Shown here one piece after another: positions 7,205-35,164 of a stretch of DNA of 64,000 nucleotides. Source of the stretch: Obrimoposthia wandeli (Eukaryota); assembly GCA_977020255.1 (NCBI GenBank), contig CDROCS010006010.1, positions 1-64,000 of the forward strand, in the 5' to 3' direction. A program made the translations under genes and the position numbers. Each line of letters begins with the position of its first letter. Within the stretch, counting starts at the first letter, position 1. The notes beneath the pieces are model-generated. The model was not told the DNA's origin. It searched no databases and was given only the letters and a program-made list of their open reading frames with translations.

Positions 7205-8149
7205 TTATATTAGATGCTGATATCTAAGTTGGATCTGAATAACCATGTCATTTAACAAAGTATTGTTTATGTTTTCCAGTACTATAGATTTTCTGTAATA
7301 TTTTTTGAATACAGAAAACGTTAGGTTTATTTGATATTACTTATAGTTCTTGCTCGTAAAACTTACCCTGAATTTTTCAAAATATTTCATCGCTCCGATT
7401 CTTATCAAACTTCTTAATAAATGGAGTAGAGCTAATTTTAGAAATTCAAACATTTTTTTTTCGTCTTTCTAACATTTTATTTTTTATTCCTGTCTATCCA
7501 AATATCCATATAGTTTTATCAGTAACATCTACCGGTCTCGTTCCCTTAAGACTAATATGTTCAGATGGATTAAGTGCATACATTATATTGGGCAAAACTT
7601 GGATCCATTTTTTATTTCCTTCTTTAGTGAAATACTTTTTTATTCAATCTCTTAAAGTACGATTAATTCTTTCTACTACTGCTGCTTTGTACTGCAAAAT
7701 TATCTAGAAGTGATTTATATTATTTTGTTTAAATAAACTGGTTGATTATGAAATTCTTTTCCTAAATCAGTTTGCACATTTTGTGGAATGTCCTCTTTTA
7801 ATATTTCTTTAATGGCTTCAAACATAGCTATTGAAGACTTTGCTTTAACTAGAATTGCACGAGCAAACCTGCTAAATACATCAATACATGTTAAAATATA
7901 TCGATATCCCTTATTAATGGAAGAATATGGGATCATCTCCATCAAATCCATTTGCCATAAATTATAAGGGCCGCTGGTTTTGTAAGCTCTAGTTGGAAAC
8001 CTTCTTCTCATCAGCTTGTTCAGGCTTTAGGCTAGCTGGTCGCTCAGCCATTTCTGCGTTTTCTTGTAATTTTGTTTTGTTCTTTTTGCTAATTTTGAAA
8101 CTCCTGTGTAGCCAATTGGATCTTTTGGATTGAACCATATCTTCTCCAT
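7205..8149 (-). pseudogene. Maverick rve-type integrase, disrupted copy
   Basis: ORF 7715-8011 (LWQMDLMEM...CIDVFSRF...QTDLGKEF) is nearly identical to the 12914-13937 integrase. Chromodomain-like end HGYSDPTWISASNI near 7210. Confidence 0.85.
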
Positions 8150-8235
8150 TACAACAATTTAAATAGAAAGAAAATTTAAGTTTAGGTAAAGAAGGGTTAG
8201 CACCCATATCTTTAACTGATTTTAGAAATAATTGT

Positions 8236-8565
8236 TTATGAACGTGTCGCAGCTATAATACTACTGATAATTGAAGCAACAAATGGAATAACAGCCCCTA
8301 TGAAACTACCATTCTGTTTAAGACTAATATTTCGTTTCCTTTTTTTTACTTTTTACATTAGCAATATCTAGAAGAGTTTTTCTATATTTCTTTAATATAT
8401 TTTTCCGATTTCAACATTTACTTGACCCAAAACTATATTAGACAAATCTTCCAATAAATCATCTACAAGAAAGGATTGAATTGCGTTGAGAATAATCATT
8501 CTCTTATTAGAAGAGGCTTTGACTAAAGCTCTAAAATATGATATGTTTCTTTGTATTTTCTTCAT
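8236..8565 (-). pseudogene. pX-like protein, disrupted copy of 12498-12827
   Basis: Reverse-complement similarity to 12498-12827 with indels. Confidence 0.75.
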
Positions 8566-8759
8566 TTTAATAAAAAAGATTCAATTTAAATATTGTTTAT
8601 ATTCGAAGCCATTTAAGTTTTTTTATTTCTAACTACAGATTTGATTAATTTTTTCACTTCTTTTTCTTAATGATTCTTTTTTTTGATTTCTTAGATTTTT
8701 ACTTTACGTTTTACTATCAACTTTGTAAAAGGCATTGCGAATTTATTTTTATAATTGTT

Positions 8760-9280
8760 CTATATTTGTTTATAAACAGTTACTCCCTTAGAATTAAATA
8801 TGTCTGTTAAAACACGTAAATCATCTGGGCAAGCTTGTGTAAAGTCAATAAATATATACCCATGTGCTTGTTTAGCAGCAGCGTGGAATGAATCAACTAG
8901 AAAGTTCTTATTTTGAGGAAATGCCTGTCTGGCCACAAAATCAACAACTGTTTGATCTCTAGGATTTTTAAATAAGACTAAGTAATGTACATTAATATTT
9001 TTTGTTATATGGTGACGTCCTTGGTGAAACAGATTTTGCGTGATAAATATAACTGTTATTTCACGATGTCTTGCAATCTTTGTAAATAAATTATTAAAGT
9101 CCGATTCCTTGTTAGCCTCCTCATACAAATCATCAATTATTATTACATCTTCTTTTTTCAATCTTTCACACCAATTTGCATCAAATCCTTCAATAAATTT
9201 TATACCCTTCAACTTGCAAACTTCTGTTTTGGTTAACCCGCTTTCCCCTCCTCCACCATGATGCCAATAAATATTTTTTC
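8760..9280 (-). pseudogene. A32/FtsK-like packaging ATPase, 5'-truncated copy
   Basis: Walker B IIIDDL and ITQNLF...YLVLFKNPRD motifs; nearly identical to 11851-12318; Walker A missing. Confidence 0.9.
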
Positions 9281-10124: not shown

Positions 10125-10607
10125 TTAAAACATAGAAATATGAGCACGTTCAATTTTCCACATAGGCAACTTTGTCCCCATTTCATCTTTCTTGTAACCA
10201 TAAAGTCGAATTGTTACAGTCCATTGCTTCTTTTTCGGAAACGCATCAATATCAACATATCTTCCATAGTCATCTAGAAATGCTTCATCGGGTCCTCGAA
10301 TATAAAATTCGTTTTTATTGAAAGTAAAATTCGGAACTGCCTTTTCAATTTTCTGGTGAAGATATTGAAAATCTGTTTTTTGAATATTTGATAGATAGTA
10401 GCTGAACTTTCTTCTTTCAATTGTCACAGGATTTACTAAAGCAATCAGTTGAGCCTTCTTCAAGAATCTGACTTTGTATTTGAAATATTGTTTTACTTCT
10501 TGATACATATCCTTATCCGATTCTTCAAATATTTCTAAATCTTCGTCACCGCTTAATACCCGTTGGCTATCCTCCATCGTTGATAATTGTCTTTGATATG
10601 AATGCAT
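10125..10607 (-). CDS. Maverick accessory protein X1 (160 aa, intact), possible OB-fold ssDNA-binding protein
   Basis: Uninterrupted ORF with homologs at 23386, 37078 and 49100. The C-terminal WTVTIRLYGY...PMWKIERA pattern suggests a viral SSB (inference only). Confidence 0.6.
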   Translation of the reverse strand: MHSYQRQLSTMEDSQRVLSGDEDLEIFEESDKDMYQEVKQYFKYKVRFLKKAQLIALVNPVTIERRKFSYYLSNIQKTDFQYLHQKIEKAVPNFTFNKNEFYIRGPDEAFLDDYGRYVDIDAFPKKKQWTVTIRLYGYKKDEMGTKLPMWKIERAHISMF

Positions 10608-10832
10608 TTACTGTGATTTGTCCTCCAATGGCGCATTCTTTTATACTAATTTCTAACAAAAACATGAATCTCATTGGTTAATATAACAAAAGCATTGATT
10701 GGACTAAATTTGATTGGAAGAAATTTTTCATTTAATTATATTAGGTTTGCAAGATAATTACAAGAAACGTGCAATAAAAAAGCAGATTCAGACATATATA
10801 AAGAAGATTTTACAGAATACAATTTCAGTCTA

Positions 10833-11334
10833 ATGAAACTCGTAAATATAAATTATAAAGGTAGAACAGAAGATGATGTTTCGTACTTACCATTCAATGA
10901 ATGGAAGCCGAGACAATATGAAAGAAAAAGTTTGACAATTTCACAGTTGTTATTTTTCCTACAGGTTAGTTTTTTATTTTATTTTCATATTGAATTCTTT
11001 AGGAAATTGTCATGTTATGGGATGCAAAATACCAATGCTTGGGTTCAATTTACCATTTGGAATTCAAATCACTGCAATACAATCAATCACGATTTCGGCT
11101 AATCTCGGGAAACAGATAAATCTTTTTAAAATTGCAGAGAAAATGAAAGAAGAATGCATCTTTGAACCAGAAATTTTTTCTGCTCTCAGTTATTTGAAGT
11201 TTAAACCGCTATGTGTAAATATATTTTCCAGTGGTAAAGTTATGATATTGGGATTGAAAAATTTTGATTATCCAGACATTGTTGAATTGATTTTAGAAAA
11301 TATATCTTATTACATCTTGTTATCTTTTCTATAA
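10833..11334 (+). pseudogene. TATA-binding-protein (TBP)-like gene, two repeats, one 38-nt intron (10965-11002), frameshift in exon 1
   Basis: Repeat 2: SANLGKQINLFKIAEK...FEPEIFSALSYLKFKPLCVNIFSSGKVMILGLK matches the TBP core. Splicing GTTAGT...TTTAG restores repeat 1, VVIFPTG|NCHVMGCK. An A-run length change near 10925 shifts the frame. Confidence 0.8.
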
Positions 11335-11353
11335 ACAAACCCGTTTAAACTTA

Positions 11354-11635
11354 TTGTTTCAAATGAATAATACTATAAATAGAGACAATGAATTGGATCG
11401 TCTTGCCGAGGAAATATTTTCTGGAAAAATTAGGGGTAAAGAAATTTTATCAGAATTAAAAAATAAAGATATAACAAGAGATAACATTGAAATATTGGTT
11501 AGATCACACGTTATTCGAGAATTTAGAAATCGTACACAAATAAATAAAATTATATCCAAATATTCATTAATTAATTTTTGTATTTCATCTACAATAGCTC
11601 TAACATTGTACATTTCAATAAGGAAACTTCTATGA
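11354..11635 (+). CDS. Small Maverick hypothetical protein
   Basis: Intact 93-aa ORF between TBP-like and ATPase, with positional homologs at 22519-22710 and 36211-36402. Confidence 0.6.
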   Translation: MFQMNNTINRDNELDRLAEEIFSGKIRGKEILSELKNKDITRDNIEILVRSHVIREFRNRTQINKIISKYSLINFCISSTIALTLYISIRKLL

Positions 11636-11673
11636 TAATATAAACAATATTTAAAAATGAAAGAGTATATGCA

Positions 11674-12318
11674 ATGGAGCTAAATAATAATGCTGTATTT
11701 CAAATAATTGGTCCCAGTGGAAGTGGAAAGACACATTTCGTATGTAAATTGTTGCAAAATGAATCTCTTTTCAAATGTAGTTTCAAACATATTTATTGGC
11801 ATCATAGTGGAGGAGGGGAAAGCGGATTAACCAAAACATAGGTTTGCAAGTTGAAGGGAATACAATTTATTGAAGGATTTGATGCAAATTGGTGTGAAAG
11901 ATTGAAAAAAGAAGATGTAATAATAATTGATGATTTGTATGAGGCTAACAAGGAATCGGACTTTAATAATTTATTTACAAAGATTGCAAGACATCGTGAA
12001 ATAACAGTTATATTTATCACTCAAAATCTGTTTCACCAAGGACGTCACTATAGAACAAGAAATCTTAATGTACATTACTTAGTTTTATTTAAAAATCCTA
12101 GAGATCAAACCGTTGTTGATTTTGTGGCCAGACAAGCATTTCCTCAAAATAAGAACTTTCTAGTTGATTCATTCCACGATGCTGCTAAACAAGCACATGG
12201 GTATATATTTATTGACTTTACACAAGCTTGCCCAGATGATTTACGTGTTTTAACAGACATATTTAATTCTAAGGGAGTAACTGTTTATAAACAAATAGAG
12301 AACAATTATAAAAAATAA
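11674..12318 (+). pseudogene. A32/FtsK-like DNA packaging ATPase with one in-frame stop
   Basis: ATG 11674, Walker A GPSGSGKT, Walker B IIIDDL, ITQN and FKNPRD motifs; TAG at 11839-11841. Confidence 0.95.
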
Positions 12319-12325
12319 ATTCGCA

Positions 12326-12466
12326 ATGCCTTTTACAAAGTTGATAGTAAAACGTAAAGTAAAATCTAAGAAATCAAAAAAAAGAATCATTAAGAAAAAA
12401 GAAGTGAAACAATTAATCAAATCTGTAGTTAAAAATAAAAAAAAACTTAAATGGCTTCGAATATAA
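12326..12466 (+). CDS. 46-aa Lys-rich basic peptide (candidate virion core/DNA-condensing protein)
   Basis: MPFTKLIVKRKVKSKKSKKRIIKKKEVKQLIKSVVKNKKKLKWLRI*, 21 of 46 residues K/R. Fills the gap between ATPase and pX-like; homolog at about 8590-8735. Confidence 0.55.
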   Translation: MPFTKLIVKRKVKSKKSKKRIIKKKEVKQLIKSVVKNKKKLKWLRI

Positions 12467-12497
12467 ACAATATTTAAATTAAACTTTTTTTATTAAA

Positions 12498-12827
12498 ATG
12501 AAGAAAATACAAAGAAGCATATCCTATTTTAAAGCTTTAGTCAAAGCCTCTTCTAATAAGAGAATGATTATTCTTAAAGCATTTCCATCCTTTGTTGTAG
12601 ATGATTTATTGGAAGTTTTGTATAATATAGTTTTGGGTCGAGTAAAAATTGGAAATCTGAAAAATATATTAAAGAAATATAGAAAAACTCTTCTAGATAT
12701 TGCTAATGTAAAAAGTAAAAAAAGGAAACGAAATATTATTCTTAAACAGAATGGTGGTTTCATAGGGGCTGTTATTCCAGTTGTTGCTTCAATTATCAGT
12801 AGTATTATAGCTGCGACACGTTCATAA
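12498..12827 (+). CDS. Conserved Maverick small structural protein resembling adenovirus pX (basic body, xGG cleavage site, hydrophobic tail)
   Basis: Intact 109 aa ending KQNGG|FIGAVIPVVASIISSII, comparable to adenoviral pX MRGG|ILPLLIPLIAAAI. Confidence 0.75.
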   Translation: MKKIQRSISYFKALVKASSNKRMIILKAFPSFVVDDLLEVLYNIVLGRVKIGNLKNILKKYRKTLLDIANVKSKKRKRNIILKQNGGFIGAVIPVVASIISSIIAATRS

Positions 12828-12913
12828 ACAATTATTTATAAAATCAGCTAAAGATATGGGTGCTAGCCCTTCTTTACCTAAATTTAAATTTTCTTTCAAT
12901 TCAAATTGTTGTA

Positions 12914-13937
12914 ATGGAGAAGATATGGTTCAATCCAAAAGATCCAATTGGCTACACAGGAGTTTTAAAATTAGCAAAAAGAACAAAACAAAATTACAAG
13001 AAAACGCAGAAATGGCTGAGCGACCAGTTAGCGTACAGTCTGAACAAGCCGATGAGAAGAAGGTTTTCAACTAGAGCTTACAAAACCAGCGGTCCTAATA
13101 ATTTATGGCAAATAGATTTGACGGAGATGATCCCATATTCTTCCATTAATAAGGGATATCGATATATTTTAACATGTATTGATGTATTTAGCAGGTTTGC
13201 TCGTGCAATTCCAGTAATAGCAAAGTCTTCAATATGCTTGAAGCCATTAAAGAAATATTAAAAGAGGACATTCCACAAAATGTGCAAACTGATTTAGGAA
13301 AAGAATTTTATAATAAGCAAATTCAATCATTATTTAAACAAAATAATATAAATCATTACTCTGTGTTTTCACAATACAAAGCAGCAGTAGTAGAAAGATT
13401 TAATCGTACTCTAAGAGATCGAATAAAAAGTATTTCACAAAAGAAGGAAATAAAAAATGGATCCAAGTTTTACCTAAAATAATACATGCATATAATCACT
13501 CTGAACATAGAGGTCTCAAGGGAATGAGACCTGTTGATGTTACTAATAAAAACTCTATGGACATTTGGATGAACAGGAATAAAAAAGAAAATATTAAAAA
13601 AGCTAAATATAAGAAAAACGAATATGTTCGAATTTCGAAAAATAGCTCTACTCCATTTATTAAAAACTTTGATCAGAATTGGAGCGATGAAATATTTTGT
13701 ATAAGTAAAATTGATCAAAAGAGTAATCCAATAATGTATACTATTAAAGATGCTGACAATAATATCGTTCACGGTAAATTTTACGAGCAAGAACTACAAG
13801 TAATATCAAATAAACCTAGCGTTTTCCGTATTCAAAAAATATTTAAATCTAAGGGTACAGGTAAACATAAACAATACTTTGTTAAATGGCATGGTTATTC
13901 AGACCCAACTTGGATATCAGCATCTAATATAATATGA
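12914..13937 (+). pseudogene. Retroviral-like (rve) integrase with C-terminal chromodomain; two frameshifts
   Basis: DDE motifs WQIDL, QTDLGKEF, VVERFNRTL; chromodomain YFVKWHGY. Split across ORFs 12860, 13234 and 13524. Confidence 0.95.
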
Positions 13938-14976
13938 AGTCTATGTATATGGTTTTACCTAGTAACGGATGTCCGAAGACTCAACCAGATAATTACGCTA
14001 GTAGCTTTATTATCGATTGGGAAGGAGAATGGGAAGCGGCTTTAATCAAATTTTCTTTTTATTATTCTCCAATTACTATCAGAAAAAACTCACATATTTC
14101 GTTTACAAAAGAAGTTGATCATGAAAAAGCAACTAAAGTTGTGATCATGTTTGATAGTAAAGGAAAATTCTTTTACAATTGTATAGATAAAGAAGTGAAA
14201 GTAATATATGAAAAAAACAAAGTCAGATTTAAAAATCGATCAAAACATTTTCAACCTATTCAAATTATATTCGAATCTGGAAGAGAAGCTCTTCAATTCG
14301 GTCTTGATAGTGGACATGTAGTAGGTATGAAGAGATCTGATATTGTCTCATCAAAATTGTTTAAAAATGTTCCTAGTAGAGTGGTAAGAGTGTTGTTAGT
14401 TGAAACGAGACCAAATACTGTAGTGGAACTGAAAATGTTTTCAAAAGATTATAAAATAGATAGTGAAGTGAATTTCTGTAAATTAATACAGAAGGAATGT
14501 AGTGAATATTTGGATAAATGTGAAACATTAAAAAATGGTAAAATAACGTTTACAGTAAAAAGCAATATAAAACGAGTTTCATTTGATGATAAAATCGCTA
14601 AAAACCTTGGTTTAAACAGAAATACCTTTGAAACCATACAATAAAAACCATAAAAGCTAAAAATAAGGCAAAACTTTTAAATGCTGTTAATCATTTATAT
14701 ATTTATACTAATTTAATAGAACCAACGCTTGTAGGAGGACAGCGAGTTCCACTTTTGAGAACAATATGGATATCTAAAAATGAAACTAAAGATGGTGACG
14801 CTGTCGGTATGTGTATAGATCAACCAATGTATCTTCCAGTTTCTCTCTTTTCTATAAACAATATTGAAGTAAATATTAGAGATGATTCCGGACAACTAAT
14901 AGATTTCACGTACGGGGCCAAGACAAGTTTAACAATACATTTAAGAATACAAAATGACGAATCTAGCAATAATTGA
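13934..14976 (+). pseudogene. Minor capsid protein (penton-like, single jelly-roll), frameshifted
   Basis: N-terminal YMVLPSN...DN..SSF..WEAAL and C-terminal YTNLIEPTLVGGQRVPLLR...MYLPV...IEVNIRDDSGQLIDF...LTIHLR motifs. Confidence 0.85.
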
Positions 14977-15320
14977 GGCTTATAGTCAAAGCCAACAAAG
15001 TGGAGAATTACCATATTTTGTTGGCAAACAATATGGATCTGGCTGGCTTAGAACATTAGGTAGATATTTAAAAGAGACTCGGACATTTTATATCAAAATT
15101 AGGAAAGGATTACCTTTCGTCTAATGACAATAAACTAATACCAACTTTTAAGAAGCATGGGCTTGATGAACTTGATAATGTTTAACCTGAAGTTGCTAAT
15201 TTGATTAGAAAACGTAAATCAAATAAAAGACAAGGAGGTAGTGGATTTAAAAGTAAAAAGAAGCAAAAAATTAATATAAACAAACGTAAGAAAGTTGAAG
15301 GAACAATATTTGCAAAATGA
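14954..15320 (+). pseudogene. pVI/cupiennin-like amphipathic protein upstream of the capsid gene, frameshifted
   Basis: ELPYFVGKQYGSGWLRTLGR...KRQGGSGFKSKK...GTIFAK*; its TGA overlaps the capsid ATG. Confidence 0.65.
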
Positions 15321-16546
15321 GTTGCGCCAAAACCGAATTGTGTATTTTTGATAAACCACTTCCACAAGTAGTTGTAGATAATACTTCCTTTGAAGAAATA
15401 TTTCTAGTTAACTCACTTTCAGGAACCACTTTAACCGAATTAGAATTTAATATGAATGGTTCCAATAGCGAGTATTTAGATTTGAATGATACTTTGCTTT
15501 ATATTCAAATAAAAGTATTAAAACGGGATGTTACTAATTTAGATGAAAATGCCGATGTAACACCTGTAAATTATCTCTTTAATTCTTTATTTAGTGATGC
15601 CATTGTTACTCTTAATAATGTCAAAATTGAAGGTGGAAATTCTTCCTATGCTCATAAAGCTTTGATTGAAAGTCTTTTGAATTATAGTACTGATACTCAA
15701 AATACTAATTTGGCAACCATTGGTTATGATAAAACGGTCGCAACTCGCAAAGAATCGATTACAGGTTCTAAAGCTTACGAAATGTGTGGGTCTTTGAGAT
15801 TGAATTTCTTTGAATAACCGAAATATTTAATTCCTGGTGTTAATGTACATCTTCGTTTGAAACTTAATAAATGGCATTTTTCTTTGATAAGCACAGACGT
15901 TCTAAAACCTAGACTTGATATTTTGAATGCAAAATTGTATGTTCGAAGAGTTAAAACCGAGCAATCAGTTTTAATGGCACATAATATAGGAATGGAAAAA
16001 AACAATGCTTATTATCCTATTAGAGAAACTAAACTTATATCTTATTCTTTAGGTACGGGTACACAAGCTTTTAATAAGGATCAGATTTTTGGTGATGTAA
16101 GATTACCGAAATTCATTTTAATTTCTTTTCAAAAAACTGCAAAGTATCTAGGAAATTATACGACAGATGCACCTCAATTTGACAATCTTTATGTAGGTTC
16201 AGTGACACTTTCAAGAAATACTGATTATCGCAAAACATATAAAACAGATTTCGAAGGTAATGCTTATGCTTTGGCTTATACGCAATCTATTATTCGGAAT
16301 TTGGGCCAACTAGATAAAAATATAAACAATGGTATTTCTTTCACTGAGTTTAAAAGTAGCTGCCAGTTCTTCACATTCGTTTTGGCACCAGACTTTGATA
16401 TAAACCAATGCCAACTACCAAAGGATGGAAATTTACGACTAGAATTTAAGTTCAATGCAGCTTTAACACATCCTACTACGGTGCTTATTTATGGAGTGTT
16501 TGATTCCGAAATACAAATCAATAAAAACAGAACTGTCATATTATAG
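15317..16546 (+). pseudogene. Major capsid protein (double jelly-roll, hexon-like) with one in-frame stop
   Basis: MSCAKTELCIF...EF.MNGS.SEYLDLNDTLLY motif. TAA at 15815-15817, then the same frame continues (PKYLIPGVNVHLRL...FTFVLAPD...GNLRLEFKF). Confidence 0.93.
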
Positions 16547-16547
16547 A

Positions 16548-16938
16548 ATGAAGTAAGACATTTTTTAAATTTATATTTATTAATTTTTATTTAGTTCAGT
16601 ATAAGTATAAGAATCAGCAGAGAAGGTCCTGGGTGATAAATTCAATGGAGTTTATCCTATTGATATGAATCCAATTTTTCAATATGGAGGTTACACTATC
16701 AATACTCATACTTCGAATTAAACAGAAGAACATTGGATAGCTATTTATGTTAGAGAGTGGACAATACATGTATTTGATCCACTTGCAATGTATTATCCAC
16801 AAAACTCGTTTCAACTATTCAAAAAGGACGAAGAAGAGTATTTTACAACAAGATACAATATCAGGATCCTGAGACGAGAAACTGTGGACATTTATGTATT
16901 TTATAGTTATCGTTGCAAAACGATTAGTGTGTTATAAA
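16548..16938 (+). pseudogene. Adenain-like cysteine protease with a 42-nt intron (16553-16594), disrupted
   Basis: ATG AA|GTAAGA...TTTAG|T gives MNS... Catalytic motifs EHW, FDP and Q...NCG are present across stops and a frameshift. Confidence 0.85.
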
Positions 16939-17178
16939 AATAAATATTTTTAATTTTTTTTTAAATCCCTAAAAATATAAGGGTAAAATAATAAAAGACA
17001 TTAGACGAAATTTCTTTTTAATACATTTATTAAAAACAACATCACAGTGAGATCTATCAGCAAAGATAAGGTCCATCCTAAAAAATGTATTGAAATAACA
17101 AAAAGTTAGAGTCAAGGTGCCATAGGGATCTAAAATTTTAAAAAACTAATCTAAAAAAATTCAAAAAATGAAAACCGT

Positions 17179-17694
17179 TTAAATTCTGAAGTGTCCATAA
17201 GCCAGGCTAACGTTTTTTTCTACCCAAAAGCGCTTGTCGTCATTACTACTCAAAGTGATTTTGGTTGATTTATGGGAATACAGTTGATGGGCTCTTGAAA
17301 TAAATCTAGTTTGCTCAACACTTTCAATACACCCAGTATCGTAAACTTTCCGGTAGGTCTCATGTGTAAAATTGTTTCTTCCCACACCCTTTGCTTTCAT
17401 TGAACATGTATTATTAGATGCATGTAAACTGTAGCATTTAGGGCGTAGGAAAATACAATCATCATACGAAACCTGTCCCTCGCTTTCATCCTTAAATTTC
17501 CCGATAATATCCTTTAAACTCATAGAATGTAGAGGATGGTTAGCGGGATATTTATGGGTATCTAATAAGTTGTCCCTAAACATTGCCGGTAATAATTGAT
17601 TATATAAACTAACATTCCTGTATTCTAAAAAGAAAGAGTCAGTGTCAGTGTAAACGGGTTGAATCACTGCCACTGGAATTGGAGCAGGTGAGGC
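17179..17694 (-). pseudogene. pPolB C-terminal fragment (motif C to thumb)
   Basis: YTDTDSFF, GKFKDE, FLRPKCYS, KAKGV, DDKR motifs. The exonuclease and N-terminal regions are absent. Confidence 0.92.
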
Positions 17695-18194
17695 CTATGA
17701 ATCGCGCACCAATTGCACGATATCCCTCTTCTTGTTGTTGGCCGTGAAACAGGATAGGTGAACTCGATGTTCAAGAAAGAAGTCTCGAAACTCCTTCTCC
17801 TCCATTGTTCTGCAGAAGATACAGACGAATAATTGAAGCCCGCGAGACTTTGTCCGATAGTAGGCGGACATTATCTCCATGCAGGTCTCTCCTCCATGCA
17901 AAGCCGAAGCACCACAATATGCTGGAAACAGGATACAAGTAATATGAAATAATAAATATTAATAAAGAAATAATAAGTATAGATTCTTACCATAGTCATT
18001 ATTTCAAATAGTCGGGGATTTTAATGAAGAAAGTGTTTGCTTATATACTAAAATTTATGCACACATGCTCTTTTCCTATTGGATTAAAAAATTGAATTTT
18101 ATTAAGAAGGATTGTTTATCTGTTAAATGGTCGAAAAAAAAAATTTTATTCCTCCAATCAAAAGAATTATTTGTAATTGAATTAGAAGAATTGT

Positions 18195-18683
18195 TTATCT
18201 ACATGTCAAGTAATAATAAGATAGACTTAAACATTTTTTATATGCGTAATGGTCACCATGATTACGATATGGACAGCAAATATTTCCTGGAATTTTTAAT
18301 AGATGATCACGTGAAATATTTAAAGTATTCAACCTCAATTTGGGAAAATAATTTTTTAAAGTCTTATACTTTTTGCCATTTATTTCATCTAAAACATAAA
18401 AAATTCCATTTTAAATATCAAAATTATATTTTATTGTTTCGAAAATGCATATTTCACAAAAAGCCATATGTCCTTCTTTCCATTTTAATAAATGAAAATA
18501 ATTAGTTAGATATAAATTAGTAAATTTTTTCTTATAATCTAAACTTTTAAACGGGATATATATTTGAAATATGAAATGCAAAGGATTAAAAATGTTGCAT
18601 ACATCCATAATACATAATTCTTTTATAATATAATCACCATTTTTGTTAATGAAAGCCTCAAAATCTATGATATATTCCTGCAT
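18195..18683 (-). pseudogene. Maverick accessory gene with DEDD-nuclease-like N-terminus and Cys/His C-terminus, frameshifted
   Basis: IIDFEAF...IIKEL, then in another frame FYVLDEINGKK...ICCPYRNHGDH(Y/C)AYKKC*. Homologs at 32527-33015 and 59485-59690. Confidence 0.65.
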
Positions 18684-18867
18684 AATTATCTAAATTTGCA
18701 GCAAATCCCGTTGTTTATAACGAAAATAATCATTAATCAAAAATTTATTAAAATAACAAAGTACTCAGGATTCAGTCTTTCATGTTAATATTGGTATATA
18801 TTGTCAATTCTCTTATGAATATTAAAATAAATTATATTAAATGTAAACATACCTAAATATTTCGAAA

Positions 18868-19050
18868 TTAAATTACATAATTTATCTCCAACAATTTCCA
18901 CAGTATCATTTTCTGAAAAGTAATTTTTTTATAATCTTCCATTAAATCTGGAGATAATTTTATGTATAACTTATTCCAATTTTTATTATCCATTTTACAA
19001 AATACATTATATATAATTTTGTTTATATTTAGACAATAATGTAACATAAT
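18868..19050 (-). CDS. Small Maverick hypothetical ORF
   Basis: Open in both duplicate copies (33200-33406); function unknown. Confidence 0.35.
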   Translation of the reverse strand: MMLHYCLNINKIIYNVFCKMDNKNWNKLYIKLSPDLMEDYKKITFQKMILWKLLEINYVI

Positions 19051-19078
19051 CAATAAAGAAAAAATAATAATCAAAATT

Positions 19079-19384
19079 TTATTTTTTTGTAGAAGGACCC
19101 TCTTCCGGTTTAATCTGGAGTATTCTCTTTCTTGCAGTACGCCGAACATCCTCCATCTCTTCTCTTCTTTTTTCATCCACCTTCCTTTTTTCCATTTCGA
19201 TCTTCTTATTCCATTCCACGATGCGACGTCGTTCTGCAAGCCTCCTATCTTGTATATCCACCCGACGATTCCACTCGGTCGCGACAGCAGTATACAGATT
19301 CTGATTAAGGACCCTCTTTCTTAAGTCCCCTTTCTTCTCATTTATTCTGATGTTTGCTTCAATCTTCGTCACCAGACTCTTCAT
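19079..19384 (-). CDS. Charged coiled-coil-like Maverick protein (101 aa)
   Basis: Intact in both copies (33412-33717); E/K/R-rich helical composition. Confidence 0.6.
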   Translation of the reverse strand: MKSLVTKIEANIRINEKKGDLRKRVLNQNLYTAVATEWNRRVDIQDRRLAERRRIVEWNKKIEMEKRKVDEKRREEMEDVRRTARKRILQIKPEEGPSTKK

Positions 19385-19616
19385 TTTAATGAATTCATTT
19401 TTTAATTATGAAGAGGTTAATAAATTTGAACCTATATATATAAATTTAAGATATTTTTTAATCTAATTAAACTATATATTTTTATTTATCAAATGAGTGT
19501 TTAATAAATATATAACTTATCATTGCATTTAAACCTAATAAACTTAAAGATAGTATTTTAATATTTCTAAATTTAAATTTTTTTAAAAATAAATTTTAAG
19601 AAGAAAAGACATGAAA

Positions 19617-20820
19617 TTAATTTTTATAAATTATATTCTTAAACATCTTTACGAAGTCATCATTAGGATCATCCGGATCGAAATCCCTCCGACTAAGTAT
19701 TATTGGAGAAAGCGGTACTGGCTCTTTCTTCTTTGGCCGTCCTGGTTTCTTTTTCGGCTTCACAGGTTGTTGTACAGCAATTGTCCTTATCTCAGGTTAG
19801 CAACCTTTGGGAGGAGGTGCAGCCGATGTTGAGGGCCCCGACATAGAAGTCCTCTTCCGTGGGGCTTTCTTCTGTTTCTCCTCCTTCTCACGCTGAAGCT
19901 GGCGTGAAACGGCATCCTGTTGCCCTCGCGAATCTTGAAGCATTGCCGGTGTATACTGTTCCGCCAGGAATTCATCCAACCCAGCTTCATCCCAGGCCCT
20001 CTTCAAGTTCTGACTGGTTGTTGGAGATGCAGTCTCCCAAGCCTTGGTCAAATTTGATGTCTCCTGTAGGCGTCGTTGACTTGACGGTGGACTAATCTCG
20101 ATCGGTGAGACTGAGATCCTCTCGTATAGAATTGGCCCGTCGTCCACTGGAGATGAGAGAATATCCTGCCGTCCAATCACCGTCTCAGAAGAATGTTGAA
20201 TTGAGGTGCTACATTTTCTCGAGCGCTTCGTCTTCTTCACTTCTGCTCGCTTCGTCCGTTTCTTGGGGAAAAGAGTAATTTCTCCCCATGTCTCCTCAAT
20301 TATCTGGACGGGTTCCTGCAAAATATTAATAAAATTTAAATAAATAAATAATTTACCTCAATGACGGGCAGGTTAGCCTGTTTCACCAACTTGGCCTTCT
20401 TCCGAGTGTGGGTTTTGACCCTATGGCGTTGTGGTTTCTTAACTGCCGCTTGCTTCCTATCCACCGGTTGAATAGGCGTCGGCTCTTCGTGGATGTTTTC
20501 CATCTATGTGAATTATTAAATTTAATATCTAAATAATTTACATTAAAATTATCTGGAGACGCTAGGTATCGGAGCTGACTCCTGAATCCTTGGTTCTTCT
20601 CTTGGAGTTGAGCTGGCCAATGAGGCTTCTTCTTCCAACAGGTTCGCTCTTGCTGCTGCTTTTCCTTCGCTCACCACCGATGAGTCTTGACTATCTAAGT
20701 CAATGTATTGCAACGGTGGTGGCGTTTGCTGCTGCACTGGAAAGAGATCCCCATAGAGTTGAACATCCGAAGGGGCGGGTGGTGTAGGTTTTGGGTATGA
20801 CACGGGTCGTCTACAAGTGT
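19617..20820 (-). pseudogene. Intron-containing, disordered Maverick protein with a C-terminal AT-hook
   Basis: The 41-nt GT-AG intron 20316-20356 joins ...LPVIE|EPVQII in frame. Candidate 38-nt intron at 20504-20541. KKKPGRPKKK at about 19725-19755, reached via a frameshift. Confidence 0.6.
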
Positions 20821-20829
20821 AGTCACCCA

Positions 20830-21900
20830 CCACCCACCGACTTACACCTACCACCCACCGACTTTCACCCAACACCCATCGACTTTCACCCACCACCCAA
20901 CACCCACCGACTTTCAACCACCACTCATTGACTTACACCAACCACCCACCTACTTTCACTCATCACCCACCGACTTATACCTACCACCCACCGACTTTCA
21001 CCCAACACCCATCGACTTTCACCCACCACCCAACACCCACCGACTTTCACCCACCACTCATTGACTTACACCTACCACCCACGACTTACACCCACCACCC
21101 ACCAATTTATCCCCACCACCCACCGACTTTCACCCATCACCCAACGACTTTCACCCATCACCCACCGACTTACACCCATCACCCAACGACTTTCACCCAA
21201 CACCCACCGACTTTCACCCAACACCCCCGACTTTCACCCACCACCCAACACCCGTCAACTTTCACCCATCACCCACCGACTTTCACCCATCACCCAACGA
21301 CTTTCCGCCAACATCCAACGACTTTCACCCAACACCCACCGACTTTCATCCACCACCCCCGACTTTCACCCACCACCCAAAACCCGTCGACTTTCACCCA
21401 TCACCCACCGACTTTCACCCATCACCCAACGACTTTCACCCATCACCCACCGACTTACACCCATCACCCAACGACTTTCACCCAACACCCACCGACTTTC
21501 ACCCAACACCCCCGACTTTCACCCACCACCCAACACCCGTCAACTTTCACCCATCACCCACCGACTTTCACCCATCACCCAACGACTTTCAGCCAACATC
21601 CAACGACTTTCACCCAACACCCACCGACTTTCACCCACCACCCCGACTTTCACCCACCACCCAAAACCCGTCGACTTTCACCCATCACCCACCGACTTTC
21701 ACCCATCACCCAACCGACTTTCACCCATCACCCAACGACTTTCACCCAACGACTTTCACCCAACACCCACCGACTTTCACCCAACACCCCCGACTTTCAC
21801 CCACCACCCAACACCCGTCAACTTTCACCCATCACCCACCGACTTTCACCCATCACCCAACGACTTTCAGCCAACATCCAACGACTTACACCCACCGTCT
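20830..21900. repeat. C/A-rich subterminal minisatellite (about 21-bp unit, CACCCACCGACTTTCACCC core)
   Basis: Direct inspection; about 450 bp in the duplicate copy (35165-35615). Confidence 0.95.
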
Positions 21901-22732: not shown

Positions 22733-23215
22733 TTATAGAAAAGATAACAAATTGTAATAAAATATATTTTCTAAAATCGATTCAAGAGTGTATTGATAAT
22801 TCAAATTTTTCAATCCCAAGACCAAAACTTTACTACCAGAAAATATTTTTACACATGGCAGTGTAAGCTTCAAATACCTGAGAGCAGGAAAATTTTCATA
22901 TTCAAACATGCATTCTTCTTTCATTTTCTCTGCAATTTTATAAAGATTTACTGGTTTCCCGATATGTATTTGATATTATGAAAATTGATTTTAATTCCAA
23001 ATGGTAAATTGATCTCATTCAGCGGTGTTATGCATCCCATAACACGACACTTCCTAAATAAATTCAATATGAAAATGAAATAAAAACTAACCTGAAAAAA
23101 ACCCTGTGAAACCATCAAACATTTTCACATATTGTTTCGGCTTCCAATCATTGAATGGTACGTGCAAAATATAATCTTTTATTCTTCCTTTATAATTTAT
23201 TATTACGGGTTTCAT
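22733..23215 (-). pseudogene. TBP-like gene of the outer element, same 38-nt intron (23054-23091)
   Basis: MKPVIINYKG...FTGFFSG| exon 1 is in frame; exon 2 is frameshifted; FEYENFPALRYLKL..CVKIFSGSKVLVLGLK. Confidence 0.75.
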
Positions 23216-23385
23216 TAGACTAAAATAGTTTTTCTGTAAATTCTTCTTTACATATGTCTGAACCTGCTTTTTATTGCACAATTCTTTTAAATATTTTGCA
23301 AATATGGATTTAGTTCAATCAAATTCAATAGTTTAGTTATGTTAATCAATGAGATTTATGTCTTTCATACAATTTAATAAAAAAA

Positions 23386-23637
23386 GTGGAAAATAAATAT
23401 CTAGTTAAAATTTTTACAACATCTGATATTGATCAATTGAAACATATTTTAGGGTTTTCCATACCATATTATGCATATGAAGGAAATTCTTTCCAGCTTG
23501 AAACTGATACCAGTCTGGCTTTTAGAGATGACCTAGGATATTTGATTGTTCCAATTTTAGATGAAGAACTATGGAATATTTCAATACGTCTTAATGAATA
23601 TTATGCTGATGGTTATGAAAAAATACAACATCTGTGA
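23386..23637 (+). CDS. Accessory protein X2, a diverged paralog of X1 (10125-10607)
   Basis: NSFQLETDTSLAFRDDLG...WNISIRL aligns with NEFYIRGPDEAFLDDYG...WTVTIRL. Confidence 0.55.
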   Translation: MENKYLVKIFTTSDIDQLKHILGFSIPYYAYEGNSFQLETDTSLAFRDDLGYLIVPILDEELWNISIRLNEYYADGYEKIQHL

Positions 23638-24637
23638 ACTCTGAGTGAAGCCAATATGGTGTTTTATATTTGATTATTTAAATAAATATTTTCTCCTAAT
23701 AATACTAATAATATGAGTATGGCGTACATATTTTTGTCCGAAGAAGCATAAAAATGTAGTCATACTCATACAAAATTATCATCTTAAATCTCGTCAACGG
23801 CTAGTCGATGGGGTCAATATGGATTCCTGTGGTATTCTATACTAACTTTTAAGTTTCATCCTTGGAGGTAGGATGTGAAATTCATATAATTTCCCTCCAT
23901 ACACACATGTATGATTTTAAAGAACAAAGGTTGTTTTTGTAATTATTTGTAGACTTTGACTTAATCGTCTTTTTGGGATACAGATATCGCGACAAAATGT
24001 TACGATAGGCAAGATTAAACGTTGAATCGATGATGACCAGTTCTGTCTAGAACTTGTTGAATTTACTAATAAATTTATACCACTTTTTTGGTAATTAAAT
24101 TTCGAATTTACAACAACAAAAAATTATATAAATTGTCATTCTTTATAAATATTGTATTTGTATTTTTATATCCGACATCAATTATGAAATACTTTGGTGA
24201 TAATTATATTTTTTGTAGTCAAAGATGATATGAGAAAATTTTAGCTGCATTGGTCTTTTGAGCAGTTGGAACTATTTACCCACCTGAGTTTTAGTGGATA
24301 TAAAAAAATGAAATGTTACAGACGATTCCCTTAAAGAAGTAAATAAACAAGATTCATGAAATTTTATTAAAAAAAGATAAAATAAAATCTTCTTTCATGA
24401 TGGGTGATAAAAATATACGTTCTTTGTCATTTATAGTTGTCGACAATGTAGAAAAATGTATAGAAAAATATCTAAGTTCAGAAAAACATGAAAAATCTTT
24501 ATAAAACAAATCAATTGAGTTCTTGAAATTTTGATGTGCAATCTCAAAACATGAAACATAATTGAAATACAATCTATTTAATAGATTATCAGGATTTATT
24601 CTCGTTAAAACTGATTATCTTAAAAAAAACAAGATTA

Positions 24638-26570
24638 TTATCTTAGATCCTCATCAGTTGCTCGTTCTTCTTCACACTGATCATCAGCTGGAGATTCAGA
24701 TTCTTCTCCTAGATCCTCATCAGTTGCTCGTTCCTCTTCACACTGATTGTCAGCTGGAGATCCGTCTTGTTCTTCTAGATCCTCATCAGTTGCTCGTTCT
24801 TCTTCAAACTGATCGTCAGCTGGAGACCCGGCTTGTTCTCTTAGATCCTCATGAGTTGCTCGTTCCTCTTCACACTGATCATCAGCTGGAGATTCAGATT
24901 CTTCTCCTAGATCCACATCAGTTTCTTTTTCTTCAGCAAACTGATCGTCAGCTAGAGACCCTGCTTGTTCTCCTAGATCCCCATCAGCTGCTTGTTCTTC
25001 TTCACACTGATCAGCAGCTGTATATTCAGATTCTTCTCCTAGATCCACATCAGTTTCTTGTTCTTCAGCAAACTGATCGTCAGCTAGAGACCCTGCTTGT
25101 TCTTCTAGATCCTCATCAGTTGCTCGTTCTTCTTCACACTGATAATCAGCTGGAGATTCAGATTCTTCTCCTAGATCCACATCAGTTTCTTGTTCTTCTT
25201 CAAACTGATCGTCAGCTGGAGACCCGGCTTGTTCTCTTAGATCCTCATCAGTTGCTCGTTCTTCTTCACACTGATAATCAGCTGGAGATTCAGATTCTTC
25301 TCCTAGATCCACATCAGTTTCTTGTTCTTCAGCAAACTGATCGTCAGCTAGAGACCATGCTTGTTCTCCTAGATCCTCATCAGTTGCTCGTTCTTCTTCA
25401 AACTGATCGTCAGCTGGAGACCCGGCTTGTTCTCCTATATCTTCATCAGTTGCCCGTTCTTCTTCACACTGATCATCAGCTGGAGATTCAGATTCTTCTC
25501 CTAGATCCACATCAGTTTCTCGTTCTTCAGCAAACTGATCGTAAGCTAGAGACCCTGCTTGTTCTCCTAGATCCTCATCAGTTGCTCGTTCTTCTTCATA
25601 CTGATCGTCAGCTGGAGACGAAGCTTGTTCTGCTATATCTTCATCAGTTGCTCGTTCTTCTTCACACTGATCGTCAGCTAAAGACGAAGCTTGTTCTGCT
25701 AGATCTTCGTCAGTTGCTTGTTCTTCCTCAAACTGATCGTCAGATGGAGACCCATCTTGTTCTCCTAGATCTTCATCAGTTGCTCGTTCTTTTTCACACT
25801 GATCATAAGCTGGAAACACTATAACAGCTGGAACTGACGGATAGAAATTTTCTTTTTTGGCATCTTTATTGTTAATAGACATGAGCATCTGCATCGCACC
25901 TTCTTCATCCTTGGATTCATCTTCCGTATACAACGGTACTTCCTCTTCATATTCCTTTTTATCGTCCCAGTCCCTGATAACAGATATCTTATTGTTAACT
26001 CTGTCTACTACCACTCGAACCTCCACTTCTTCGTTTTTATCGTCACAGTCACTATCAAAATTTTTATCATTTTTCAGACTAAACTCCACTCCCATTTCGA
26101 TTGAACCAGCTCTACTTTTCAATTCTACAGAATTCAAATATTCTGCATCTACACAGTCATTCTCAGTGCCGGTCAGTTTACCATCAAAACTAGTTTGTGT
26201 GACCAATATATTTCCCTCTGCATCTCCAATATACCCAGCAACCGTAGATCTATCTACATTGTCAACAAAATCTTGTCTGCTGCCTTCAGATGGCATACTC
26301 CACTCAACTCCGTTGTCTACATCCTCATAGACTCCTGAAGGTCGTGCATTTGATTCTTGGTGGACCTCAAGCTTGTTCCTGTATTTCTGATTGTCGTATT
26401 TGTCCTTAAAATCGCCCACCGCAAGCCCTGGTATGCCGTAATAACTTACACTTAGCCCACTTTCGTAAGCTGATAGATTAGGACGACGTTCTATAAGTTG
26501 TGGTGTATCATAATGATCTTTGGCTTCATCATCGTCGTCAATGGTTGCTTCATTACTGAGATGGAATGAT
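24638..26570 (-). CDS. Duplicated terminal exon of the host receptor: acidic cytoplasmic tail with about 18 x 22-aa repeats
   Basis: Acceptor tttcatttttag|A at 26571, open to TAA at 24638-24640; paralog of 38331-41184. Confidence 0.75.
24640..25810 (-). repeat. 66-bp coding tandem repeat (DDQxEEExATDEDLxEQAGSxA), about 18 units
   Basis: 22-aa period in the translation. Confidence 0.95.
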
Positions 26571-26759
26571 CTAAAAATGAAAACTTCCGTTATACATTCA
26601 GTCACTTACACATACACAGTCAATCTCAGTCATAACCACAGTCACGTTCATTTTCGAAATCACATTAACGGTCCCAGGCTCGGTCAGTCATAGTTACATA
26701 GCCACAGTAACAGCCATAGTCACAGTGACATACATTTCTGTAATCAGTCACAGTCACTC

Positions 26760-27170
26760 AGTCATACTGTCACAGTCACACAGTCATACTGTCACAGTCA
26801 CACAGTCATACTGTCACAGTCACACAGTCATACTGTCACAGTCACACAGTCATACTGTCACAGTCACACAGTCATACTGTCACAGTCACACAGTCATACT
26901 GTCACAGTCACACAGTCATACTGTCACAGTCACACAGTCATATATTCACAGGCACACAGTCACACAGTCATACTGTCACAGGCACACAGTCATAATGTCA
27001 CAGTCACACAGTCAAAATGTCACAGACACACAGTCATACTGTCACAGTCACACAGTCATAATGTCACAGGCACACAGTCAAAATGTCACAGACACACAGT
27101 CATAATGTCACAGGCACACAGTCATACTGTCACAGGCACACAGTCATAATGTCACAGGCACACAGTCAAA
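26760..27170. repeat. 22-bp intronic satellite (CACAGTCACACAGTCATACTGT), about 18 units
   Basis: Direct inspection. Confidence 0.95.
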
Positions 27171-27180
27171 TAGGCCTTGC

Positions 27181-27283
27181 CTTGTACGCAGTTTTTTTCG
27201 GTTTATCCATAAAGCAGCGCCACCACAGATGAGACAAAGGCCAAAGAATATCCCAAGTACACAACCGACAATTGTCCATGTCC
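27181..27283 (-). CDS. Duplicated transmembrane exon of the host receptor
   Basis: ttgtttcag|GG...WTIVGCVLGIFFGLCLICGGAALWINRKKLRTR|GCAAGG (GC donor); 103 nt, phase 1 to 2. Confidence 0.8.
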
Positions 27284-28799: not shown

Positions 28800-29308
28800 A
28801 ATAATGATTTTTCTTGAATGAAAGAACTTCAAAGGGACCTTTAAAATGCGATTGATTGTTTGCTCCATTTCTTCCACATCGATTTTGATACATCAAGCTA
28901 ACTTTGTCGCCAATCTTATTTTCAAAATTGGTTGTCTCAAGGTCGACAATCTCATCTCAAATGTTAATCATGGAATGGACCCAATCATTATATGATACGT
29001 CTTCATTAGGGTTACCTGGGCATTTTGAAGTGCAAAATTTGTGTACGAATTGAAATTAAAATAGGGTGTAAAACATCTGGCAAAAGATTCTACTACCCTC
29101 TTTCCCATTATTCGATTGTTCCTCTCTGTCAGTATGTTAGCCTGCTCCTGAAACACTGATGCTACTGGCTGTTGACTCTTTCAGAAATGCTGCTCACAAA
29201 TTCTCCTCCATGATCATTGATCTGAACATCTACAGCACATGAATGTCTACATACAATATATTCGAATATAAATTCCATAACCAAATCCGCAGTCTCATCC
29301 CTAATGCT
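28800..29308 (-). pseudogene. Ty3/Gypsy-type integrase remnant, truncated at the duplication junction
   Basis: INDHGGEFVSSIS, QANILTERNNR and KTYHIMIGSIP resemble the rve core (xDQGxEF, QxNGxxERxN, TPYxLMxGRxP). Confidence 0.7.
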
Positions 29309-29650
29309 GAGGCTTATAGTCAAAGCCAACCAGGTGGAGAATTACCATATTTTGTTTGTACACAATATGGATCTGGCTGGCTTAGAACATTAGGTAGATA
29401 TTTAAAAGAGACTCGGACATTTTATATCAAAATTAGGAAAGGATTACCTTTCGTCTAATGACAATAAACTAATACCAACTTTTAAGAAGCATGGGCTTGA
29501 TGAACTTGATAATGTTTTACCTGAAGTTGCTAATTTGATTAGAAAACGTAAATCAAATAAAAGCCAAGGAGGTAGTGGATTTAAAAGTAAAAAGAAGCAA
29601 AAAATTAATATAAACAAACGTAAGAAAGTTGAAGGAACAATATTTGCAAA

Positions 29651-30879
29651 ATGAGTTGCGCCAAAACCGAATTGTGTATTTTTGATAAACCTCTTCTACA
29701 AGTAGTTGTAGATAATGCTTCCTTTGAAGAAATATTTCTAGTTAACTCACTTTCAGGAACCACTTTAACCGAATTAGAATTTAATATGAATGGTTCCAAT
29801 AGCGAGTATTTAGATTTGAATGATACTTTGCTTTATGTTCAAATAAAAGTATTAAAACGGGATGGTACTAATTTAGATGAAAATGCCGATGTAACACTTG
29901 TAAATTATCTCTTTAATTCTTTATTTAGTGATGCCATTGTTACTCTTAATAATGTCAAAATTGAAGGTGGAAATTCTTCCTATGCTCATAAAGCTTTGAT
30001 TGAAAGTCTTTTGAATTATAGTACTGATACTCAAAATACTAATTTGGCAACCATTGGTTATGATAAAACGGTCGCAACTCGCAAAGAATGGATTACAGGT
30101 TCTAAAGCTTACGAAATATGTGGGTCTTTGAGATTGAATTTCTTTGAATAACCGAAATATTTAATTCCTGGTGTTAATGTACATCTTCGTTTGCAACGTA
30201 ATAAATGGCATTTTTCTTTGATAAGCACAGACGTTCTAAAACCTAGACTTGATGTTTTGAATGCAAAATTGTATGTTCGAAGAGTTAAAACCGAGCAATC
30301 AGTTTTAATGGCACATAATATATGAATGGAAAAAAACAATGCTTGTTATCCTATTAGAGAAACTAAACTTATATCTTATTCTTTAGGTACGGGTACACAA
30401 ACTTTTAATAAGGATCAGATTTTTGGTGATGTAAGATTACCGAAATTCATTTTAATTTCTTTTCAAAAAACTGCAAAGTATCTAGGAAATTATACGACAG
30501 ATGCACCTCAATTTGACAATCTTAATGTAGGTTCAGTGACACTTTCAAGAAATACTGATTATCGCAAAACATATAAAACAGATTTCGAAGGTAATGCTTA
30601 TGCTTTGGCTTATACGCAATCTATTATTTGGAATTTGGGCCAACTAGATAAAAATATAAACATTGGTATTTCTTTCACTGAGTCTAAAATCAGCTGCCTG
30701 TTCTTCACATTTGTTTTGGCACCAGACTTTGATATAAACCAATGCCAACTACCAAAGGATGGGAATTTACGACTAGAATTAAGTTCAATGCAGCTTTAAC
30801 ACATCCTACTACGGTGCTTATTTATGGAGTGTTTGATTCCGAAATACAAATCAATAAAAACAGAACTGTCATATTATAG
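29651..30879 (+). pseudogene. Major capsid protein, duplicate copy
   Basis: Shares the TAA at 30149-30151 and adds TGA at 30323-30325 plus a frameshift near 30780. Confidence 0.92.
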
Positions 30880-30880
30880 A

Positions 30881-31270: not shown

Positions 31271-31510
31271 AAATAAATATTTTTAATTTTTTTTTAAATC
31301 CCTAAAAATATAAGGGTAAAATAATAAAAGACATTAGACGAAATTTTGTTTAATACATTTATTAAAAACAACATCACAGTGAGATCTGTCAGCAAAGATA
31401 AGGTCCATCCTAAAAAATGTATTGAAATAACAAAAAGTTAGAGTCAAGGTGCCATAGGGATCTAAAATTTTAAAAAACTAATCTAAAAAAATTCAAAAAA
31501 TGAAAACCGT

Positions 31511-35160: not shown

Positions 35161-35164
35161 CACC

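Follow-up and report, generated by a model that had tools for sequence, protein, structure and literature searches.

It is an open question in the field by what means the capsid genes of Mavericks are expressed, and whether these elements go through a viral life cycle at all. The gene set described for vertebrate Mavericks has no TBP, and intact vertebrate Mavericks showed no introns, according to the accessible text of that study (PMC8097293). We found no mention of TBP or TATA in the accessible portions of PMC11161782, PMC11071296, 10.1101/2023.08.22.554363, 10.64898/2026.06.19.733378, and PMC8097293, and "TBP" is used as a figure label for MELD viruses of non-animal data sets (PMC8502044, Fig. 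5 legend; preprint 10.1101/697771, both available in part). The available sections of a survey of viral TBPs cover these proteins without Polintons (PMC7221094). Introner insertions have been described in dinoflagellate Maverick-like elements, mostly as post-integration events in the available text (PMC11957031), and a literature search returned no report of introns in nematode Polintons. Among viruses, KSHV ORF24 offers a precedent: it mimics TBP, its DNA surface is polar, and it reads TATTWAA late promoters. As described in the accessible text, this large multidomain protein is part of a six-protein complex, in which it binds Pol II directly (PMC12529657). We found no description of the family reported below, or of its promoter-like box, in the open literature, while subscription papers, Repbase, and bioRxiv supplements may hold the gene. 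Here, we describe a reduced TBP that one Maverick clade carries as a fixed gene, together with a candidate cognate box of the late genes and a probable intron that is conserved in the host lineage.

The stretch analyzed (the window) spans 64,000 nucleotides of Obrimoposthia wandeli DNA. The original prediction placed a TBP-like Maverick gene interrupted by a 38-nt GT-AG stretch at 10833 to 11334, and its coordinates, motifs, and frames were confirmed: the ATG is at 10833, the GT at 10965, the AG at 11002, and the TAA at 11332 to 11334, with VIFPTG, NCHVMGCK, and NIFSSGKVMILGLK in the frames described. The gene and its copies in the window are as follows.

10794 to 10802, plus strand: ordinary TATA box (TATATAAAG), read from the sequence, 39 nt 5' of the TBP-like ATG
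10833 to 10964, plus strand: exon 1, reduced N-lobe strands, ending on the first base of a Gly codon; frameshifted near 10920-10930
10965 to 11002, plus strand: 38-nt GT-AG intron, phase 1, putatively spliced, from comparison with subfamilies and L130
11003 to 11334, plus strand: exon 2, last N-lobe strand and complete C-terminal TBP lobe (EPEIF stirrup, NIFSSGK), by PF00352
22700 to 23230, minus strand: second TBP-like copy, decayed, with a 38-nt intron at 23054-23091
36392 to 36922, minus strand: duplicate of the 23-kb TBP-like copy, with an intron at 36746-36783 (38 nt)

Exon 2, present in at least 150 genome copies at 94 to 100%, matched the Pfam TBP family PF00352 over one repeat (E = 8.5e-12; 45.2 bits against a curated cutoff of 22.9, with locus L044 reaching 63.8, likewise for one repeat only). 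Each copy in the window had been predicted to carry a frameshift at a different place. The 10833 copy has its break in exon 1, but the two outer copies share the same breaks and differ at 2/531 nt, and the next-best of 40 genome matches to them is 84% identical. Judged from these sequences, the 23-kb and 36.7-kb copies are one decayed copy that was duplicated rather than independent lineages. They do keep a 38-nt intron, as predicted, but since they are near-identical duplicates they are weak evidence on intron age and do not date it.

The structure of the encoded protein was most readily approached through a fourth subfamily in the same genome, which is intronless and encodes the whole protein in one 144-aa frame, with VIFKTG-KCRIMG running straight over the intron site (uninterrupted in 8/9 copies, 1 unresolved). 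Exon 1 of the window gene matches residues 2 to 39 of this sister ORF at 46%. The model of the sister ORF (pLDDT, 97.6) aligned to TBP over 144/144 residues (Z = 14.0; root mean square deviation, 2.4), and the first non-TBP row of the structure search appeared at Z = 6.8. The claim of the original prediction that splicing restores both TBP repeats stands in part: the TBP fold extends over the whole intronless sister, but the exon-1 pieces alone found no match in Pfam (0/4), and N-lobe residues 1 to 81 are modeled as strands with no helix (pLDDT ≥90 throughout), next to a whole C-lobe. The protein is thus predicted to adopt the TBP saddle fold with N-lobe helices H1 and H2 and strand S2 missing, and, on this model, it is not a canonical TBP with two complete lobes (H1 and H2 in each). 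We refer to it as the mini-TBP.

Conservation was assessed over 82 aligned family members. Three intercalating Phe residues are invariant (F39, 81/81; F98, 82/82; F114, 80/80); the N-lobe stirrup Phe is not clearly kept (column 23 is P/K/R/S; F20, 48/79). The family constants R45 (81/82), M47 (82/82), N112 (80/80), and S/T69 (82/82) replace Val, Thr, Leu, and Asn of cellular TBP, based on alignment to solved TBPs and motif spacing, and polar surface residues Arg45, Asn112, Ser/Thr69, and Thr/Ser71 are invariant or nearly so. Which positions face DNA is our assumption from known TBP structure and from strand alternation, rather than from a complex. The C-lobe stirrup Glu residues are kept as E94 (74/82) and E96 (80/82). 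TFIIB contacts are made by two C-lobe Glu residues, the first of which is only ~40% conserved in viral TBPs, according to the available text of PMC7221094, and E94 and E96 would correspond to these two. The best PDB sequence matches are archaeal TBPs (57 bits, versus 37 for human TBP), a difference that symmetric repeats inflate.

The 38-nt stretch is very likely an intron, since different 34- to 44-nt GT-AG inserts occupy the same codon in three subfamilies of the genome and in the metagenome element L130. In subfamilies A (that of the window), C, and D and in L130, a different AT-rich insert of the form GT...TTAG follows the first base of the same Gly codon, and the intronless sister is colinear with the flanking sequence; the inserts have GT-AG ends and a pyrimidine-rich body, as expected of spliceosomal introns. 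Among subfamily copies chosen by best exon-2 score, which favors well-kept ones (17/234 hits were dropped because they had no anchor Met), the GT donor is present at the Gly codon in 36/36 A, 28/30 C, and 31/31 D copies, as well as in L130; the AG acceptor is kept in 34/36, 28/28, and 31/31 copies, respectively; and the exon 1 frame is uninterrupted between Met and donor in 24/36, 25/28, and 30/31. Insert lengths are 34 to 44 nt in A, 38 nt in C, and 35 to 43 nt in D; pattern-based calls may err in some of 18 old copies (the outer copies of the window were called as 38 nt by hand). The lengths in D cover all three phases, yet exon 1 is open in nearly every copy. Short introns do occur in this host: one of its own TBP genes is interrupted by a 47-nt intron, located at another site.

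Alternatively, the stretch could be a dead insertion that broke the gene, given that Maverick core genes are reported as intronless in the accessible text of PMC8097293 and that the junction is predicted from DNA. This is highly improbable, because four lineages (A, C, D, and L130) whose proteins are only ~50% identical carry different inserts at the same base, all GT...TTAG; because three subfamilies with at least 150 scored copies each in the 1.35-Gb genome keep both exons in frame; and because, over the last 12 codons of exon 1 in five lineages, codon positions 1, 2, and 3 are identical in 76, 88, and 56 of 120 comparisons. In four sequencing runs (kind unrecorded, one sample) on 10700 to 11400, the 10964/11003 junction was in none of 15 listed joint rows of 98, a result that favors neither reading. 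The sequence comparisons support the intron of the original prediction. Mavericks have been described as intronless, and a spliceosomal intron kept at a single codon in several of their lineages is at odds with that description.

The intron is probably a lineage-specific gain, and it is not needed, since sister elements do without it. Of 76 metagenome copies, 73 lack the intron, 1 carries it, and 2 are unresolved, which is not a frequency because the best 80 of 177 metagenome loci favor intronless genes. A tree built from 65 exon-2 pieces is poorly resolved; it requires 3 changes of the intron label and is compatible with one origin. A coarse test for 30- to 100-nt inserts between the tblastn pieces of PolB, ATPase, integrase, penton, and MCP found none in 20 stretches and the window; the same test gave one 49-nt extra in the pX of L066 and a few larger ones. 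Separately, 8/150 database matches start exactly at the invariant Met47 (P0034, P0047, P0057, P0058, P0076, P0083, P0086, and P0098). These possibly represent a gene caller reporting exon 2 alone and, thus, intron-bearing copies in other hosts.

The element that carries the gene is a Maverick/Polinton, in agreement with the context originally proposed. Its pPolB, A32 ATPase, and rve integrase hallmarks are all represented, with the window copy broken and its PolB a remnant. The genes 3' of the TBP-like gene follow in this order, with one further gene of the element at the end of the list.

11363 to 11635, plus strand: 90-aa ORF of no known family (no Pfam match), behind an ATAAAC box
11674 to 12318, plus strand: A32-like packaging ATPase, broken in the window copy; its close copy in L076 matches Pox_A32 at 1e-5
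12842 to 13937, plus strand: rve integrase with chromodomain, frameshifted, by Pfam and relatives
13886 to 15317, plus strand: presumed minor capsid (penton) gene and small pX-like gene, by tblastn to L076, named by position and analogy
15275 to 16546, plus strand: major capsid (MCP) gene, broken, ATG at 15317 with a TATAAACA box 41 nt before it, by tblastn and family model
17182 to 17664, minus strand: protein-primed PolB, C-terminal remnant, 91% to L076
19700 to 20650 (approximate bounds), minus strand: low-complexity gene with one AT-hook-like motif (KKPGRPKK at 19742), read from the sequence

The MCP family is modeled as a double jelly-roll (Foldseek E = 2.6e-13 to iridovirus capsids and 4e-13 to PBCV-1 capsids), the neighboring PolB frames of L076 and L065 match PF03175, and the presumed penton and pX-like genes have no match in Pfam. 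An adenain-type protease (Peptidase_C5, E = 1.1e-7) is the next gene after the capsid gene in the relative L114, and tblastn places matches of this protease in the window. Neither the 25 longest of 40 inverted pairs nor a scan for end motifs revealed clear ends for the window element.

The window also contains repeats. An inverted 92% copy of the ATPase-integrase stretch (11785-13699) lies at 7378-9278 on the minus strand, with a 350-nt internal repeat, and a 6.3-kb direct duplication (98.3%; 14974-21249 versus 29308-35587) extends into the 22- to 23-kb and 36- to 37-kb copies; it is either a tandem duplication or an assembly artifact. Tandem arrays of 66-nt and 22-nt units occupy 24500-25900 and 38200-41200 and 26550-27250 and 41 to 44 kb, and the 66-nt array yields long open frames (655 and 962 codons) with a weak mucin-like match. 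A small paralogous ORF family of no known family is present at 10140-10580 (minus strand), 23377-23670, and 49119-49800.

The mini-TBP is a recurrent Maverick gene. Window exon 2 alone, used as a query, returned 1 protein, and the family emerged only with the intronless ORF, which found 136 representatives at E ≤ 1e-10 among 1.84 billion (some lower ones are ordinary TBPs); a profile search then gave 472 proteins at E ≤ 1e-20. Family members have a median length of 163 aa (range, 107 to 275). A Maverick hallmark (pPolB, ATPase, integrase, penton, or MCP) accompanies the gene in 38/80 metagenome loci, these being the best 80 of 177 with L081 removed from the counts, and in 19/22 loci of at least 4 kb. 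Conversely, own-genome loci picked by their ATPase alone have a TBP-like piece within 1.5 kb in 29/30 cases. The phage collection held no mini-TBP match, and scans of viral contigs with ATPase and MCP queries found nothing. The single IMG/VR match, L081, proved to be an ordinary TBP with two repeats from a large DNA virus and was rejected as a family member.

The Maverick load of the genome appears very high, with ~30,000 first-look candidates per TBP-like or ATPase query, a figure that does not represent copy numbers. The host itself has two head-to-head canonical-like TBP genes (L031/L032, G000:C238), one divergent spliced TBP gene among L031 to L036, and, at two places, a divergent 214-aa TBP that has two repeats and no intron (host TBP loci: L031/L032, C238; L033/L036, C968; L034/L035, C60 and C1092). 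A distant TBP-bearing Maverick (L136, 7145-15433) also encodes KilA-N, PLA2-like, C2H2 zinc-finger, and weak Tet/JBP-like proteins.

The original prediction suggested that the protein drives late genes, and this role is backed by a gene-specific promoter-like box. ATAAAC occurs at -55 to -20 before the ATPase ATG in 44/50 starts, many of which are kin copies, and in 0 on the opposite strand, compared with a mean of 3.1 and a maximum of 8 in 200 shuffles. In the metagenome, it precedes the ATPase in 23/25 loci (20/22 after near-copies are collapsed), with the consensus YATAAACA (T18/C4/G1 before and A20/G3 after the core in 23 loci). The box is strand fixed and has TATA-like spacing, with most examples at -31 to -37. 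Before the TBP-like gene itself, ATAAAC is found in 0/38 cases and an ordinary TATA in 20/38 (shuffle mean, 2.7; maximum, 8); the TATA box at 10794 to 10802 would accordingly be an early promoter read by the host. In the window, an ATAAAC box lies 32 to 41 nt before eight element ATGs, including the following.

11330 to 11337, plus strand: TATAAACA box overlapping the TBP stop codon, 32 nt before the next ATG
11639 to 11646, plus strand: TATAAACA box 34 nt before the ATPase ATG
12287 to 12830, plus strand: three ATAAACA boxes (12287, 12463, and 12824), 32 to 39 nt before the ATGs at 12326, 12498, and 12856

Other ATAAAC sites in the window (9 plus strand and 4 minus strand) have no frame of at least 40 codons in reach, and some of them precede broken genes. 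The box is missing at the first ATG of several late ORFs in long metagenome loci, e.g., the MCP of L114, L136, and L152. The presence of the box within upstream coding sequence, and ahead of a head-to-head gene (L097), argues against a poly(A) signal.

Among 21 control elements without a TBP match, ATAAAC precedes the ATPase in 1/21 and an ordinary TATA does so in 12/21. These controls, which are pPolB or integrase elements from viral-contig scans, represent few lineages (9/21 belong to a single clade), and most are partial contigs, so shared ancestry of one clade could account for the link of TBP with the box. The sole ATAAAC among them (TATATAAACT) belongs to L340 (1-12321), a complete 12.3-kb Maverick that is bounded by TIRs and falls in the same ATPase/MCP clade but lacks both the TBP gene and repeated ATAAACA. 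L340 has ordinary TATA-like boxes before several genes.

Our preferred explanation, which we hold with moderate confidence, is that the TBP-like gene is an early gene, read by host TBP and spliced by the host, and that its product recognizes YATAAACA and brings host TFIIB and Pol II to the late genes. First, host TBP would read the ordinary TATA of the gene, and the host spliceosome would remove the intron. The mini-TBP would then bind the minor groove of YATAAACA through its three kept Phe residues and newly polar surface, where Arg45, Asn112, Ser/Thr69, and Thr/Ser71 would tolerate the C at position 7. In a third step, the kept EPE stirrup would bind TFIIB, presumably that of the host, since no TFIIB gene was seen in the elements. 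Finally, loss of the N-lobe helices may free the mini-TBP from host regulators such as Mot1 and TAFs.

The same anatomy, a TFIIB stirrup kept and an N-lobe regulatory surface lost, would also suit a dominant-negative protein, and the box is close to a TATA; with T first in 18/23 loci, it resembles a variant TATA to which host TBP might bind weakly. Host TBP might read all of the element promoters, and the mini-TBP would then be a decoy or repressor, sequestering TFIIB or occupying host or early viral TATA boxes to silence them. We regard this as unlikely, because the box is restricted to elements that carry the TBP gene (23/25 versus 1/21) and stands before that gene in 0/38 cases, and because the family-specific invariant polar strand residues suggest a different, selected specificity. 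Competition with host TFIID, the other role suggested in the original prediction, would be a rival reading as well.

It is quite unlikely, too, that a host forkhead-type factor reads ATAAACA and that the TBP-fold protein does some other DNA job, e.g., bending termini for replication or packaging. ATAAACA does fit what we take to be the forkhead consensus, RYAAAYA, and TBP-like folds also occur in replication initiators (Z 6-7 rows). A forkhead site, however, would not account for the fixed strand and TATA-like spacing of the box and would leave the TFIIB-contact Glu residues unexplained; moreover, GTAAAC, presumably the usual forkhead form, occurs in 2/25 regions before the ATPase, and the reverse form occurs in 0/25.

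If the mini-TBP does act as a transcription factor of the element, its partners might be unrecognized element-encoded proteins or BRF and Pol III instead of host TFIIB and Pol II. The small ORF family adjoins the TBP-like gene in many close elements and is a candidate partner of the protein; the herpesvirus vTBP needs five viral partners (accessible text of PMC12529657), and Brf1/2 use the same Glu contact (available text of PMC7221094). Nevertheless, the neighbor ORF has no family match (its best feature score, 0.86, is no more than a lead) and, in the distant clade, went undetected next to the gene, while protein-coding targets would fit Pol II better than Pol III, which makes such partners very unlikely. 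Recruitment of host TFIIB and Pol II thus remains our preferred reading.

The AT-hook gene, which the original prediction had paired with the TBP-like gene in a transcription module, did not hold up as a conserved partner: the motif is present in 0/9 long (partial) TBP-bearing metagenome loci and in 1/20 long own-genome stretches. The AT-hook-motif gene has a candidate 41-nt GT-AG intron of its own (20356-20316, minus strand; duplicate near 34.7 kb), and this pattern was matched in 18/25 copies, all at 41 nt, so the regulatory genes of the element may be the spliced ones. More tentatively, it is possible that a broad Maverick clade follows an early/late cascade like that of herpesviruses, using the smallest TBP-type factor yet described, in which one and a half lobes read YATAAACA, use host TFIIB, and escape TFIID, Mot1, and NC2, and that in the host lineage introns in regulatory (TBP-like and AT-hook) rather than structural genes let splicing gate virion production.

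An element-encoded promoter factor with a late-gene box makes the question of Maverick expression testable with one small protein and an 8-bp site. As a natural minimal TBP of apparently altered specificity, the mini-TBP may also be useful for learning which parts of TBP are needed for TFIIB recruitment.

Compared with known systems, the mini-TBP shares with cellular TBP (PF00352; PDB 1cdw, 7egb, and 2z8u) the saddle fold over 144 residues (Z 13 to 14), the C-lobe YEPELFP stirrup, the IFxSGK turn, and three intercalating Phe residues. It differs in being ~30 residues shorter, in the absence of N-lobe helices and S2 from the model, in its 21 to 29% identity, and in having polar replacements on the DNA-side strands, with the N-lobe stirrup Phe not clearly retained. 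The herpesvirus vTBPs (KSHV ORF24 and EBV BcRF1; accessible text of PMC12529657) resemble it only in how they work, as TBP mimics whose DNA surface is polar, encoded by viruses that rely on host Pol II and have a variant TATA on their late genes; the structural match to BcRF1 is weak (E = 2.9e-3). In contrast to ORF24, BcRF1, and UL87, which are large proteins that bind Pol II through an N-terminal domain and act in a complex of six proteins, the mini-TBP is a bare saddle of 145 to 170 aa with a TFIIB stirrup, and its box is YATAAACA, not TATTWAA. With the TBP-like proteins of giant DNA viruses and mirusviruses, it shares a virus-encoded TBP fold (Foldseek E values down to 1.5e-8). Those proteins have two full lobes, mostly occur with a viral TFIIB, and keep the TFIIB Glu in ~40% of cases (available text of PMC7221094), whereas the mini-TBP keeps its two Glu residues in 74/82 and 80/82 members within elements that show no TFIIB. 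Finally, its elements have in common with the Mavericks, Polintons, and adintoviruses, as these are described in the accessible text of PMC8502044 and PMC8097293, the pPolB, the A32 ATPase, the rve integrase, the adenain-type protease (in L114), and the double jelly-roll MCP.
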